Virus record (IMG/VR): IMGVR_UViG_3300029539_000017
Coordinates: 1 to 32,171 of that record
Strand: one strand, 5' to 3'
Source of the DNA: a virus
Length of the DNA: 32,171 nucleotides
Shown here: in pieces, positions 2,132 through 31,572 of the stretch
How the letters are laid out: every line of letters begins with the position of its first letter
Position numbering within the stretch: position 1 is the first letter of the stretch
The notes under the pieces: model-generated
Told to the model about the DNA's origin: nothing
What the model saw: only the letters and a program-made list of their open reading frames with translations
The model's database searches: none
Program-made: the position numbers and the translations under genes

Positions 2132-2474
2132 AATAGCAGAGAAACACGCAGGAGGACGTCCAAGAATAAAGATTGATTATGAAGCAGTTGAAAAGCTTGC
2201 TTCTATTGGATGTACTCAAGAAGAAATTGCCGATTTCCTAGGATGTTCAGTAAGAACATTGTTAAGAAATAAAAAGTTTTGTCAGACATATAAAAGAGGT
2301 ATAAGCCACTCAAAAAGAAGTTTAAGACGTATGCAGTTTGATAAGGCTTCAAAAGGGAATACGACCATGCTTATTTGGTTAGGAAAACAAATGCTTGGAC
2401 AGAGAGAAAAGGTTGAACAAACAATGACACATGAGATTGAGGACCTAACACCTTTGGCAGATTTATTGAAATGA
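2109..2474 (+). CDS. terS: Terminase small subunit (HTH plus GGRP motif). Probable true start at in-frame ATA 2133.
   Basis: AGGRPRI motif, HTH IGCTQEEIADFLGCSVRTL, MLIWLGKQMLGQ. ATG 2109 has no SD; ATA 2133 follows AGGGGG by 8 nt and gives the N-terminus M-AEKHAGGRP typical of TerS. Confidence 0.75.
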   Translation: MIVIGGIKIAEKHAGGRPRIKIDYEAVEKLASIGCTQEEIADFLGCSVRTLLRNKKFCQTYKRGISHSKRSLRRMQFDKASKGNTTMLIWLGKQMLGQREKVEQTMTHEIEDLTPLADLLK

Positions 2475-3808
2475 TGACTAGAACGATTCCGTGGGGGAAA
2501 TTTTCAGATAAACATAAGAACTATATTAAGACCGCCCTAAATTACAAACAAAGTGTAGCAGAAGGAGCGGTACGAAGTGGCAAAACGATTGACCACTGCA
2601 TAATCTTTTCAATGTATTTGGAAACATGTGAAGATAAAATACATTTAGCGAGTGGGTCAAGCTTACCGAATGCGAAATTAAATATAGGCGATTGCAATGG
2701 TTTCGGCTTAGAGCATATCTTTCGTGGACGATGTCGTTGGGGTAAATACAAATCAAACGAAGCGTTATTTGTCCAAACAAAGACAGGCGAAAAGATTGTT
2801 ATATTTACAGGTGGCGGAAAGTCCGATTCATATAAGAGCATATTAGGTAACTCATATGGAGGATGGATTGCCACCGAAATAAATGAGCATTATGATTGTG
2901 AGGATTCTAGAACAAGTTTTATCAAAGTAGCAATGGCAAGACAGATTGCAAGTGTACATCCATTTACATTATGGGATTTAAACCCATCAAACCCAAACGC
3001 AGACATTTATAAGAATTACATAGATAAATTCATGGGATTGGATTGGTACAGATATGAGCATTTCAATATCTTTGATAATGCTACAATGAGCCAAGAAAGA
3101 ATCGAAGAAATCCAAAACAAATATGACATGAATTCAGTATGGTACAAGCGAGATATTCTAGGGGAAAGAATGGTTGCCGAAGGACTTGTATTCCCTTATT
3201 TTGCTAATGACTGCAAACCTTACCTATTCAAATATCAACATTTAAAAGAGAAGATGAAAGAAAAAGGGAAAAGGTTTAGTCATTTAATCATAGGAGTAGA
3301 CTTTGGAGACAACGGGTCGAAATATTCATGGCACTTAACAGGATTCACAAACGATTGGGATTATATGTGGGCGCTTGATGAAGGAGACATGGCAAAGTCA
3401 AATGCAATTGACGCAACAAAGTTCTGCAAAGCGTTTGTAAGGTTCTATAAGCGTTGTATTGAATGTTATGGATATATTGAATGGATATTTCCGGATAGTG
3501 CTTCAAATACGCTTATAAACACGCTTAGAGCTTATTTTTACGCTGAAGGATTAGACGGAAGTATAATTGCACCAGTTAAGAAGAATGAGCTTACAGACCG
3601 CCCTATAACAGTTGATAGCTTACTTGTTACAGGGCGATTAAAGATAGAAGAACATTGTAAGAATTTAATAAACGCATTGAGCGAATTAGTATGGGATGAA
3701 AAGAAAGACATCCCAAAAGATGAGAACGTAAACAACATTAATGATGATTGGGATTCGTTCTGCTATACATTTATAACCCATAGTGGATATATAGATTTAA
3801 GGAGGTAA
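2471..3808 (+). CDS. terL: Terminase large subunit (PBSX/Terminase_6-like; Walker A GAVRSGKT).
   Basis: ATG overlaps the TerS stop (ATGA). Walker A motif present. 445 aa with nuclease-like C-terminal half. Confidence 0.9.
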   Translation: MMTRTIPWGKFSDKHKNYIKTALNYKQSVAEGAVRSGKTIDHCIIFSMYLETCEDKIHLASGSSLPNAKLNIGDCNGFGLEHIFRGRCRWGKYKSNEALFVQTKTGEKIVIFTGGGKSDSYKSILGNSYGGWIATEINEHYDCEDSRTSFIKVAMARQIASVHPFTLWDLNPSNPNADIYKNYIDKFMGLDWYRYEHFNIFDNATMSQERIEEIQNKYDMNSVWYKRDILGERMVAEGLVFPYFANDCKPYLFKYQHLKEKMKEKGKRFSHLIIGVDFGDNGSKYSWHLTGFTNDWDYMWALDEGDMAKSNAIDATKFCKAFVRFYKRCIECYGYIEWIFPDSASNTLINTLRAYFYAEGLDGSIIAPVKKNELTDRPITVDSLLVTGRLKIEEHCKNLINALSELVWDEKKDIPKDENVNNINDDWDSFCYTFITHSGYIDLRR

Positions 3809-3811
3809 GAA

Positions 3812-5215
3812 ATAGAAACATCTAACACACGTAATCCGTGGTTTCAGAATTACCTAAACGATAGAGGGTATTATGTAGATACAAACGCAATTGAGATTAT
3901 TGAATTGTGCAATAAGTGGTATACAAATACCGAAACAGAATTTCATACGGCATATACCTTAAACAATGAGGAATACATGCTAGACAAAACAGACTTTGCA
4001 AAGCGTTTGTGCGAAGATGACGCAAACCTTATTGAAATCCTAGATATAAACGCTACGGAAGACAGTACAACAAATGATATTATTTCAGACATTCTAACGA
4101 AGAATAGATTTGATGTTATGTATAGGAAGCAAGTTGAACAAATGTCTGCAAATGGTACGGTAGGAGCTTATGTAACGGTATCGAATGCCGAGATTTATGA
4201 AGATGGTACATTTAGTGGAGGAGAAATCAGAATCAACTATTGTGATTCAATGAATATCCTACCATTAACTGTTATAAATGATGAAATCGTTGAGGTAGCT
4301 TTCGTTGGAGTAAATTATGAAAAACTAAAAAAAGTATATGTGATGGTCATGTTCTTAAAAGGACAAGATGAAAGATATATTGCAGAAACACATTACTTTA
4401 AAGAAACAGGCGAAGAAATAAAAGAGCGTGCTCAGATTGTTCAATTAGATGTGGTTAAGCCGTTTGCAATTATGAGAAATGCAAAGGTCAACAACTTACA
4501 AATGCAAGGGTACGGCTTACCGAAGATTTGGAGTGCAATTGCTCCTTTGAAAACAATTGATTTAACAATGACAATGTGGAATCGTGATTTATTGAAATCG
4601 GATAAAATCGTTCTTGTAAACGAAGCATTAATGCAAAAAGACGAGAATGGAAAAGTAAAACAGAATCCACAATTAAAGAATATCTTCGTTCAATTAGGTA
4701 GAGATAAGCTACCGGAAGAAAAAGCTTTATGGCAAGAATATAATCCAACAGTAAGGACGGCAGAAGTTGTTCAGTCACTAGAAACGGCGTTAAGTATCTT
4801 ATCAATGATGTTTGGATTCGGTACAAAAAAATACACGTTTGAAAGTGGAAGGATTGTCACTGCTACCGAATATATTGGTGAGAATCAAGACGCAATGAAG
4901 GAAGTTAACTCACAACGTAAAGAATCTACGGCATATATTCAAGATATTATTCAAGCAATAGCATACTTCTACGAATTAACACAAGGCAGAAAGCTTAATA
5001 TTAATTCATTAGACATTGCTATTGATTATGATGATACATATATCGAGGATAAGCAAAGCACGGCACAAGCGTTAAGAAATGACGCACTAACATTTGATAT
5101 TCCAAGATTGAAAATCATGTATTTCATGAAACAATACGGATTCACTGAGGAAGAAGCAACGGAGTTATTAAATGAAGAAATTCAAGATGATGGAGAGGAG
5201 GATGACGAAGAATAG
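3812..5215 (+). CDS. Portal protein (by position, size and acidic C-terminal tail). Start assigned to ATA 3812; the first canonical start is TTG 3905 with no SD.
   Basis: Follows TerL. The frame is open from the stop at 3806. GGAGG at 3801-3805 and ATA 6 nt later. The annotated TTG/ATG region lacks any SD. Confidence 0.7.
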   Translation: METSNTRNPWFQNYLNDRGYYVDTNAIEIIELCNKWYTNTETEFHTAYTLNNEEYMLDKTDFAKRLCEDDANLIEILDINATEDSTTNDIISDILTKNRFDVMYRKQVEQMSANGTVGAYVTVSNAEIYEDGTFSGGEIRINYCDSMNILPLTVINDEIVEVAFVGVNYEKLKKVYVMVMFLKGQDERYIAETHYFKETGEEIKERAQIVQLDVVKPFAIMRNAKVNNLQMQGYGLPKIWSAIAPLKTIDLTMTMWNRDLLKSDKIVLVNEALMQKDENGKVKQNPQLKNIFVQLGRDKLPEEKALWQEYNPTVRTAEVVQSLETALSILSMMFGFGTKKYTFESGRIVTATEYIGENQDAMKEVNSQRKESTAYIQDIIQAIAYFYELTQGRKLNINSLDIAIDYDDTYIEDKQSTAQALRNDALTFDIPRLKIMYFMKQYGFTEEEATELLNEEIQDDGEEDDEE

Positions 5216-30837: not shown

Positions 30838-31322
30838 TGAGTATTAATATTGCAGTAATTTGTGGGAGATTAACTAAAGATGTTGAGTTAGCAAAAACAC
30901 AAAATGGAAATAGCGTAGCAAAGTTTACGGTAGCAGTAAATGGAATTAATGATAATACAGATTTTATTAATTGTGTGGCATGGAACAAGCTTGCAGATAT
31001 TGTAAATATGTATTGCAAGAAAGGTGATTTAGTTACGGTTGAAGGAAGAATCAGTGTTAGAAATTATGAGAATCAACAAGGACAGAAAGTTTATATCACT
31101 GAAGTGGTGGCTAGTAACGTGCAATTACCGCCTAAAAACGTTTCTAATGGGCAAAATTTCAGTTCTAATGTAAATGCATATCAATATCAAAACCAAGCAA
31201 ATAACAACGCTTACGGCGTTCAAAACACATATACACAACCTAGCTTAACACAACAAATCGCACAACAAGAATATACTGAAAGCGGATTAAATATTGCTTC
31301 AGATGATTTACCTTTTAAGTAA
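30837..31322 (+). CDS. ssb: Single-stranded DNA-binding protein (OB fold; Q/N-rich linker; C-terminal DDLPF tail).
   Basis: INIAVICGRLTKDVEL…VAWNKLADIV… and the acidic C-terminal tip DDLPFK. Confidence 0.85.
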   Translation: MSINIAVICGRLTKDVELAKTQNGNSVAKFTVAVNGINDNTDFINCVAWNKLADIVNMYCKKGDLVTVEGRISVRNYENQQGQKVYITEVVASNVQLPPKNVSNGQNFSSNVNAYQYQNQANNNAYGVQNTYTQPSLTQQIAQQEYTESGLNIASDDLPFK

Positions 31323-31347
31323 TTCTATAGCTTGACGAACTATAGAA
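31323..31347. other. 8-bp inverted repeat TTCTATAG-N9-CTATAGAA immediately after ssb; the spacer contains a TTGACG -35-like hexamer.
   Basis: Perfect inverted repeat; possible operator/regulatory hairpin. Confidence 0.3.
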
Positions 31348-31377
31348 TAAAATTGTCAAAAAATGGAGGTAACGCAA

Positions 31378-31572
31378 ATAGAAATGAATCATGAAGAAAG
31401 GATTAAAGAGTTAATTTCTAAAAATAATAAACTAGGAAGGACAAATATTGAGCTTAATCAGATTATAAAAGAAAGAAATGCAACAATTCATAATCAAGCG
31501 CATGAAATAAAGGAATTAAAATATAAAGTTGGCGAATTAGAAGATAGATTGTATAAGGTATACAGTTCATGA
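31378..31572 (+). CDS. Small coiled-coil protein (~64 aa); start ATA 31378 or ATG 31384 (ATG 31363 lies inside the SD).
   Basis: GGAGG at 31365-31369; ATA 8 nt later, ATG 14 nt later. Confidence 0.4.
   Translation: MEMNHEERIKELISKNNKLGRTNIELNQIIKERNATIHNQAHEIKELKYKVGELEDRLYKVYSS

Follow-up and report, generated by a model that had tools for sequence, protein, structure and literature searches.

ATA start codons and an initiator-like tRNA with a UAU anticodon in a group of human gut phages

How does a phage translate genes in which a strong Shine–Dalgarno (SD) sequence is followed by ATA rather than by ATG, GTG, or TTG? This question is raised by the IMG/VR virus record IMGVR_UViG_3300029539_000017, which we analyzed over its full 32,171 nt (hereafter, the window) and in which all 56 genes lie on the plus strand. 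We count 11 firm and two probable ATA starts among these genes, about a quarter of the total, in capsid, portal, tail, lysis, and replication genes, while the ~43 others start with ATG, GTG, or TTG. The same genome encodes a tRNA with a UAU anticodon (31922..31997), and the answer that we consider likely, on the strength of comparative sequence analysis, is that this tRNA is an alternative initiator, derived from tRNA-fMet, that decodes the AUA starts.

ATA codons at the start of virion, lysis, and replication genes

In an unbiased scan of all strong SD sites preceding a long open reading frame, on both strands, the triplet behind the SD was ATA in 12 cases and ATG in 15, all on the plus strand. 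The other triplets were ordinary sense codons next to real starts, ATT, ATC, and CTG were not similarly enriched, and nothing turned up on the minus strand. The eight ATA codons singled out in a preliminary description of this DNA (3812, 5212, 10802, 13378, 14846, 17422, 22439, and 26628) are all in frame as it had stated, and a strong SD lies 4 to 10 nt upstream at each site, although that of 26628 is AGGTG and not of the AGGAGG/GGAGG type seen at the others. SD pairing is stronger at ATA starts, with a median energy of −11.4 kcal/mol vs. −7.9 kcal/mol for canonical starts (p = 6e-5). The open frame, said to begin immediately after a stop, does so within 0 to 2 codons in five of the eight genes (no codon intervenes for the tape measure protein, TMP, and one each for portal, capsid, and major tail protein), but the gap is up to 15 codons otherwise. 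The nearest ATG, GTG, or TTG lies 11 to 140 codons downstream; these canonical codons are where they had been reported to be and are without an SD, with the exception of ATG 15266, which has a weak AGGAG 11 nt upstream.

Related genomes, which had been suggested as a check, have ATG at the codons aligned with the ATA of the capsid, RusA, connector-like, and holin-like genes. The capsid aligns with its homologs from residue 1, and the aligned codon is ATG (MPN.../MAN...) in ~45 IMG/VR contigs with 54 to 66% identity and ATA (IPN...) in ~35 contigs with 91 to 97% identity. PHROG profiles extend to residues 2 to 10 of the capsid, head protein, endolysin, RusA, replication initiator, and major tail protein. 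Within the clade, 198 of the 309 variable sites in the N-terminal extensions (from ATA to the first canonical start) fall at codon position 3 (p = 3e-28), a coding constraint that argues against the view that these genes are truncated pseudogenes. Individual sites also toggle between the two codons. The major tail start 13378 is ATG in one relative (L186), and of the two candidate starts of the holin-like gene, 19322 is ATG in L181, L190, and L186, and 19352 only in L186; conversely, ATG 7431 of the window is ATA in two relatives.

The pattern extends well beyond the window clade, which we call lineage A. Scans for sequence patterns and a search with TerL (the large terminase) brought up two sister lineages in which it recurs, B (L292 and the human-gut metagenome contig L255) and C (L293, L294, L302, and L303), even though capsid identity among the three is only 53 to 54%. 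The start is ATA in A, B, and C alike for the genes of the small terminase (TerS), portal, capsid, 12600 homolog, major tail, and RusA, and ATG in A, B, and C alike for the scaffold gene and the homologs of 11840, 12959, and 13903. In total, ATA starts were seen in more than 60 contigs from IMG/VR, ENA, JGI, Logan, and NCBI metagenomes, representing many samples, assemblers, and studies. Judged by SD spacing, by homology to the starts of relatives, and by coding constraint, these ATA codons are the start codons of their genes. Alignment with ATG in homologs, conservation, toggling, coding constraint, and the presence of a matching tRNA all speak for genuine AUA initiation, which was one of the two options that the preliminary description had put forward.

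For TerS (2121..2474), the SD GGGGGT (2121-2126) and the probable start ATA 2133, which has an A at −1, match ATG 8875 in their GGGGGT-N6 geometry, and the upstream ATG 2109 has no SD in the window. The portal gene (3799..5215; SD AAGGAGGT) starts at ATA 3812, the codon found in 33 distinct clade sequences, and its stop is overlapped by ATA 5212, the start of a 712-aa head protein (5196..7350; SD AGGAGG) that is ATA in every clade sequence. The latter had been called a tail fiber, but it matches phrog_1220 from residue 3 and is not clearly one. The major capsid gene (10786..11671; SD AAGGAGG; ATA 10802), the product of which matches phrog_422 from residue 3, and the major tail gene (13363..13884; SD AAAGGAG; ATA 13378) do share the context ...GGAG..TTAATTAATA that had been noticed. 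Between them, a head–tail connector-like gene (12585..12962; SD GGAGGT) starts at ATA 12600, the codon that is ATG in outgroup homologs; TTG 12582 is disfavored because the SD lies 3′ of it. As a side observation, an SD followed by ATA also opens the homolog of this gene in one outgroup contig (L064), the siblings of which (L062, L063, and L057) have ATG, which may be chance or an independent case.

The TMP gene (14827..17425; SD AAAGGAGGT) starts at ATA 14846, the first codon after an in-frame TGA, and in the 420 nt preceding its first ATG codon position 3 holds 94 of the 142 variable sites. The start of the distal tail protein (Dit) gene (17408..18294; SD GGAGGTG; ATA 17422) overlaps the TMP stop as ATAG, just as described. 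A holin-like gene (19308..19828; phrog_199 holin match) has two SD-plus-A-ATA starts ten codons apart, 19322 and 19352, with both sites and both SDs conserved; in relatives, either both (L186) or only the first (L181) are ATG, and 19352 looks like a second start. This arrangement resembles the dual-start holin/antiholin motif, built on ATA. Further downstream come the endolysin gene (22421..23200; SD AAAGGAGG; ATA 22439), which encodes a CHAP domain, gives profile matches from residue 2, and retains ATA in alleles only 69 to 72% identical; the RusA resolvase gene (26616..27008; SD AGGTG; ATA 26628), with a profile match from residue 2 and ATG at the aligned codon in outgroups L133 and L137; and a DnaD-like replication initiator gene (26997..27750; SD GGAGGTGAT; ATA 27010), in which the GTGs fall within the SD and ATA is retained in an allele only 53% identical. 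Finally, a small gene (31365..31572; SD GGAGGT) has the conserved string ATA-GAA-ATG across the clade. Its start at ATA 31378 is still ambiguous since ATG 31384, at which public gene calls begin, is 13 nt from the SD. Among the sites that had been left as ambiguous, we therefore settle on ATA for 12600, 19322, and 27010, and regard it as probable for 2133. ATA starts are found in 10 of 27 late and 3 of 27 early genes, a marginal difference (p = 0.054). In hundreds of public contigs of this common gut phage, every standard gene caller truncates or misses the corresponding N-termini (those of the portal, capsid, tail, TMP, and endolysin proteins); public calls shorten the portal protein to 436 aa and the capsid protein to 275 aa.

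A conserved initiator-like tRNA that co-occurs with the ATA starts

The tRNA gene (31922..31997, plus strand; AGCAGGAUAGAGCAGUAGUAGCUCACUAGUCUUAUUAGCUAGAGGUCGAACGGUGCAAAUCCUUCUCCUGCAACCA) is 76 nt long, with an initiator tRNA-fMet-like body and an encoded CCA. It matches the Rfam tRNA model at 31922-31994 (31997 including CCA) with 48.8 bits and E = 1e-7, the 1:72 position being flagged as nonstandard. ARAGORN overlooks most copies: it does not report the one in the window and detected five of 25 clade copies (anticodon TAT), just upstream of the equivalent of window position 1, probably because of a T-stem bulge and odd T and D loops. The minimum free energy z-score (−0.87) is unremarkable, as is usual for tRNAs. 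When compared with 5,426 Escherichia coli genomes, the sequence matched tRNA-Met genes only, at a median of four places per genome, taken to be the four initiator genes (metZWV and metY), and the best match that was inspected lies between mltA and amiC, in the metZWV cluster (78% identity). It is present in every clade locus covering the region (32 loci, 35 IMG/VR contigs, and 27 metagenome contigs) as nine sequence variants with an invariant anticodon loop, and the two forms of its anticodon stem, CUAGU/GCUAG and UCGGU/GCCGA, differ by three compensatory pair changes. From its sequence and conservation, this is a real gene for an initiator-like tRNA.

The assignment to the initiator class follows from several positions. 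In the window, the acceptor end has an A1×A72 mismatch, G2-C71, C3-G70, A73, and CCA; the anticodon stem (CUAGU/GCUAG) contains G30-C40 and the loop CUUAUUA gives the UAU anticodon followed by U37; the variable loop is AGGUC, the T stem has a one-base bulge, and the T loop is UGCAAAU. Lineage B, the TerL and capsid of which are 73% and 54% identical to those of the window, has C1×A72 and a canonical T loop, and lineage C has G1×A72; the anticodon loop is CUUAUUA in both. Nucleotide 1 is thus A, C, or G and never U, the sole base able to pair with A72, so no lineage has a Watson–Crick 1:72 pair. Twelve tRNA pairs show compensatory changes across lineages, with G2-C71, C3-G70, A11-U24, and G30-C40 unchanged; these four pairs, like A73, are also the same as in E. 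coli metZ. The D-stem pair 11:24 is A-U in 8 of 8 aligned sequences, covering all aligned lineages. A11:U24 is initiator-specific, elongators having a pyrimidine at 11 and a purine at 24, and elongators that read ANN codons have a purine at position 37. What would be expected of an elongator tRNA-Ile(UAU), namely, a paired 1:72, pyrimidine 11:purine 24, and purine 37, is found in none of the three lineages. The formylase determinant consists of the 1:72 mismatch along with pairs 2:71 and 3:70 (PMC5389676).

Codon usage gives no sign of a demand for an elongator either, since internal ATA makes up 14.5% of Ile codons, compared with 38 to 64% in AT-rich relatives without the tRNA. The 1:72 mismatch, A11:U24, U37, and low internal ATA use together make an elongator role unlikely. 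We note besides that internal ATA is rare in the window clade (14.5%, at 34% GC) vs. 32 to 64% in the comparably AT-rich L296, L133, L255, and L303, possibly because internal AUA codons that could cause spurious initiation are avoided. Nor is this a case of stop recoding, as 56 of the 56 genes are without internal stops and UAU is the sole tRNA anticodon. With an initiator-type tRNA rather than an ordinary tRNA-Ile at hand, AUA is probably read efficiently and cognately, so the expectation that AUA initiation is very inefficient need not carry over to a genome that brings a matching anticodon on an initiator-type body.

ATA starts and tRNA go together among the relatives. L296, the closest lineage lacking the tRNA, with TerL 67 to 71% identical, has no tRNA(UAU) and only a tRNA-Cys, and its portal and capsid start with ATG and its TerS with TTG. 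Likewise, L133, the other relatives sharing the radical-SAM gene, and all the capsid outgroups lack the tRNA and show ATA counts at background. Initiator-like tRNAs(UAU) with A37 in L200-L204, L194-L199, and the nonclade members of L247-L291 were considered as further cases and set aside because no ATA-start pattern was seen in the DNA examined. Such A37 tRNAs are scattered over unrelated viral contigs, one of which (L286) looks like a TAG-recoded phage, and a few bacterial genomes (e.g., Roseobacter insulae, Terracidiphilus, and Chloroflexi and Collinsella metagenome-assembled genomes). In distant capsid relatives with an ATG capsid start and 54% identity (L070-L077), the capsid gene is preceded, at a distance of ~700 bp, by a tRNA-Met(CAU) at ~2257-2332; that of L077, the only one parsed, is of the initiator type, with G1×A72 and a GGG/CCC anticodon stem. 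Carriage of an initiator tRNA may be older than the change of anticodon.

The base before the start codon covaries with the tRNA as well. An A occupies −1 at 13 of 13 ATA starts and at 17 of 40 canonical starts in the window (p = 1.4e-4), and at six of six and eight of nine ATA starts in lineages B and C, respectively. The nucleotide at position 37 of an initiator tRNA has been shown experimentally to pair with mRNA −1, and an A37U change favors complementary −1 bases (PMC10018350). U37 combined with A at −1 suggests recognition of a quadruplet, AAUA by UAUU.

The tRNA also appears to have a transcription unit of its own. A hairpin followed by T6 (31881..31904), conserved in the clade, is the likely terminator of the upstream operon and would isolate the unit. 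It is followed by an extended −10 promoter-like box, TGCGATAAT (31907..31915), whose motif TGnRATAAT is conserved in 26 of 26 distinct clade flanks and which would act as a promoter. As the box ends 6 nt before nucleotide 1 of the tRNA, the transcript may begin at the mature 5′ end or beside it, in which case RNase P might not be needed. Downstream (31998..32104) come a conserved trailer of ~80 nt (31998-32079), without a match in Rfam, and an intrinsic terminator (32080-32104). The trailer contains a long-range stem, 32005-32012 with 32064-32071 (AAAGCCUA/UAGGCUUU), for which relatives have the compensatory variants AAAGUUUA/UAGACUUU and AAAGUCUA/UAGACUUU. The terminator reappears at 8-32 owing to a 99-bp terminal repeat.

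Proposed mechanism and competing explanations

In the mechanism that we propose, the tRNA would be made from this small unit (terminator, extended −10 box, tRNA, trailer, and second terminator) and receive its amino acid, most likely Ile, from the host isoleucyl-tRNA synthetase (IleRS). In Bacillus subtilis, IleRS charges a tRNA whose UAU anticodon is unmodified, and this tRNA shows strong binding to AUA and weak binding to AUG (PMC3919564), which makes formyl-Ile the most likely initiating residue. Host formyltransferase would then formylate the tRNA, as the acceptor determinants (1:72 mismatch, G2-C71, and C3-G70) are kept, and the retained G30-C40 would let it enter the ribosomal P site directly. 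There, UAU would pair fully with an AUA placed 4 to 10 nt after a strong SD, U37 probably adding a fourth pair with the A that precedes nearly every ATA start. The users of this channel would be TerS, portal, head protein, capsid, connector, major tail, TMP, Dit, holin, endolysin, RusA, the DnaD-like initiator, and one small gene, while internal AUA would remain an Ile codon for host tRNAs. The expression of the phage tRNA, its charging and formylation, its use of the P site, and its purpose are all things we infer.

Putting these elements together, we lean toward the existence, in an abundant group of human gut siphoviruses, of a natural orthogonal channel, in which an initiator tRNA(UAU), probably carrying formyl-Ile and using four-base AAUA/UAUU pairing, makes the main virion, lysis, and replication genes efficiently translatable only with the phage tRNA and maybe free of the host tRNA-fMet pool. 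Among the genes starting with ATA are those for the most abundant virion proteins and for lysis; the same genes have remained ATA through deep divergence, and their SDs are the strongest. This suggests that a dedicated channel has been selected for, as opposed to having arisen by drift. What it would be for is the least certain part. It may make the output of late proteins depend on how much phage tRNA is present, as a control of timing or dosage, or may give independence from a host tRNA-fMet pool that is depleted or under attack by host or phage; silencing of toxic or late genes where the tRNA is absent is another candidate. Anticodon-loop changes in phage tRNAs are known to evade host nucleases (PMC10264068).

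Some observations weigh against an AUA-decoding initiator. Of the three G-C pairs 29:41, 30:40, and 31:39 of initiators, only G30-C40 is invariant, 29:41 being A-U or G-C (A-U in the window) and 31:39 U·G or, rarely, C-G; the anticodon is UAU rather than CAU in every copy; and the elbow in lineage A is odd (T loop UGCAAAU, D loop without GG, and T-stem bulge). Charging is made uncertain by U37 and the UAU anticodon, as methionyl-tRNA synthetase normally requires CAU and the IleRS of E. coli makes use of t6A37. The middle G-C pair (30:40) alone nevertheless sustains E. coli, and au/GC/gu stems are natural in mycoplasma initiators (PMC5389676). In addition, the association of the tRNA with ATA starts may reflect one evolutionary origin, the lineages being related, and L200 (IMG/VR 3300045988_058182) carries at 915-990 a tRNA(UAU) with a clade-like anticodon arm, A37, and a U1-A72 pair, yet its phage genes start with ATG in the 8.5 kb read.

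This last case would fit a different explanation, in which the ATA starts are read near-cognately by the host fMet-tRNA (CAU), helped by strong SDs and by coupling, and the phage tRNA is an elongator tRNA-Ile(UAU). AUA initiation reaches 5 to 15% expression in vivo and equals AUG in an optimized in vitro system (PMC5499595), and since ordinary tRNA-fMet can thus read AUA, the phage tRNA is not strictly proven necessary. The unusual strength of the SDs of ATA starts and the overlap of several of these starts with an upstream stop would also suit such a scheme. We nevertheless hold it to be unlikely, because a 1:72 mismatch in three forms, A11:U24, and U37 are unfavorable for an elongator, internal ATA use is low and not high, the most abundant virion proteins would depend on a weak start, ATA starts are confined to genomes with the tRNA, and the match of A(−1) with U37 would go unexplained.

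The remaining explanations would restore ATG in one way or another. Editing of the third base from A to I would yield AUI, read as AUG by the normal initiator tRNA, and inosine pairing with C would make the start cognate again; a G indeed follows nine of the 13 ATA starts. However, no deaminase-like protein was found among the 56 proteins, the sites share, apart from A at −1, no common context or hairpin of the type that TadA needs, and a co-evolving UAU initiator-like tRNA would be left unexplained, which makes editing highly improbable. Still less can be said for a sequencing, assembly, or base-modification artefact or for pseudogenes, the true codon being ATG or a downstream start. A possible DNA-modification module (ParB_N, radical SAM, and TAGT in relatives) and the absence of GATC and CGCG might point that way, but the same ATA codons recur in more than 60 contigs and three diverged lineages, some relatives have ATG at single sites, and the N-terminal extensions are under coding constraint. 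A systematic G-to-A change, the second option of the preliminary description, is contradicted by the occurrence of the pattern in many samples and in diverged lineages, and a blanket conversion of AATG to AATA, or a basecalling error linked to that motif, was rejected since AATG occurs 370 times in the genome. It is equally hard to credit that AUA means Met in the phage or its host. AUA is both Met and a start codon in several mitochondrial codes, and some bivalve mitochondria have a tRNA-Met(UAU) (PMC3022732), but the residues that homologs have opposite the 132 internal ATA codons are Ile (52%), Leu, Phe, and Val, as for ATT and ATC, and not Met, whereas ATG aligns with M. A phage-encoded initiator for AUA is the reading that we retain as the likely one.

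Genome context and relation to known systems

Bases 1-99 of the window are identical to 32073-32171, and relatives read through the junction of the two ends. This exact 99-bp terminal direct repeat and the relatives spanning the junction indicate that the window is a complete circular genome (or one assembled circularly) of 32,072 bp. The gene order is ParB_N protein, radical-SAM protein, TerS, TerL, portal, head, tail, lysis, and recombination/replication, ending with a small sigma-region-4-like protein; no integrase was found in the window genome. Megablast gave no match to cultured phages, the closest TerL proteins being from a human fecal phage (49%) and Clostridioides difficile phages (45%). 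TerL relatives with 98 to 100% identity are extremely common in human gut metagenomes, and TerL relatives are metagenomic without exception. In a tRNA-pattern scan of genome contigs, there was no prophage of this group, the six genomes that matched being unrelated.

A ParB_N-domain gene is followed by a gene for a 435-aa radical SAM protein (51-1989), which lies next to the tRNA. A role as a tRNA-modifying enzyme was considered for this protein and set aside; it instead resembles PA0069/Rv2578c (DNA-repair type; NCBIfam E = 5e-19, with a score under the family cut-off) and has no sequence match in the PDB. In many relatives, a PF20691 (TAGT) gene sits between the two (L205-L209, 7449-8210), and together they are a possible DNA-modification module. 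GATC (expected ~92 times) and CGCG (expected ~23) are absent from the window, and CAGC, GCTG, GGCC, CCAG, and CTGG are depleted 5- to 20-fold, which suggests strong avoidance of restriction sites. Two small proteins, encoded at 31569-31895 and 19803-20069, have weak matches to sigma-70 region 4/helix-turn-helix domains. The former, directly upstream of the tRNA and packaging genes, is a candidate late-gene regulator, and the start of its homolog in lineage C is itself ATA. Scans with PHROGs, Pfam, and NCBIfam revealed no translation factor, formyltransferase, aminoacyl-tRNA synthetase, or deaminase among the window proteins.

A full-text literature search, of incomplete coverage, returned no report of bacteria or phages in which an initiator tRNA with an altered anticodon occurs naturally. 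The phage tRNA and its ATA starts would thus be new as a natural system, its principle being known from engineering and its function deduced here. If our reading holds, this would be the first natural non-CAU initiator tRNA in bacteria or phages with a dedicated non-AUG start, and private-codon initiation, until now a laboratory construct only, would exist in nature. It would offer natural tests of whether initiation factor IF3 checks codon–anticodon complementarity rather than AUG itself and of the pairing of position 37 with mRNA −1, as well as ready parts for orthogonal gene expression in Bacillota.

Among known systems, the phage tRNA is close to the bacterial initiator tRNA-fMet (e.g., E. 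coli metZWV/metY), with which it shares ~78% identity, a 1:72 mismatch, G2-C71, C3-G70, A11:U24, G30-C40, AGGUC, and A73-CCA. It differs in being phage-encoded, in having UAU and not CAU, U37 and not A37, and one or two of the three G-C pairs, and, in lineage A, in A1×A72 and an altered elbow. The complementarity of its U37 to A(−1) has a parallel in the published A37U mutant, which prefers a complementary −1 base (PMC10018350). The phage pair, unlike that of the mutant, is natural and fixed, and was deduced from covariation only. Elongator tRNA-Ile(UAU) occurs in Mycoplasma mobile. There, and in a B. subtilis tilS suppressor (PMC3919564), UAU likewise reads AUA, and charging by IleRS is plausible for the phage tRNA too. 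These elongators, however, have an elongator body and act in the A site, whereas the phage tRNA has initiator determinants. Mitochondria also use AUA as a start codon, but there internal AUA is Met, by way of a tRNA-Met with f5C34 or UAU, while it is Ile in the phage.

A functional parallel is found in gut phages that recode stop codons by means of suppressor tRNAs (PMC10879173), where a phage tRNA similarly alters codon reading in a subset of, mainly late, genes and standard gene callers misannotate the affected genes. In our case the effect would be at initiation, with no in-frame stops and the meaning of internal AUA unchanged, so that initiation would join suppressor tRNAs among the ways in which phages rewire decoding, as the start-codon counterpart of stop recoding. 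In principle, the system resembles engineered initiators. Work in the RajBhandary and Schulman laboratories reportedly showed that initiators with amber or GAU, GAC, or GAA anticodons start at complementary codons in vivo. Anticodon-mutant initiators usually carry the amino acid that the new anticodon specifies. Orthogonal initiation has also been obtained with a synthetic i-tRNA(AAC) (bioRxiv 10.1101/2021.05.25.445580). As in these constructs, an initiator body with a changed anticodon would start translation at a complementary non-AUG codon behind an SD; unlike them, the phage system is natural, is conserved in an abundant group of gut phages, and appears to have co-evolved with 13 starts and with the base that precedes them.

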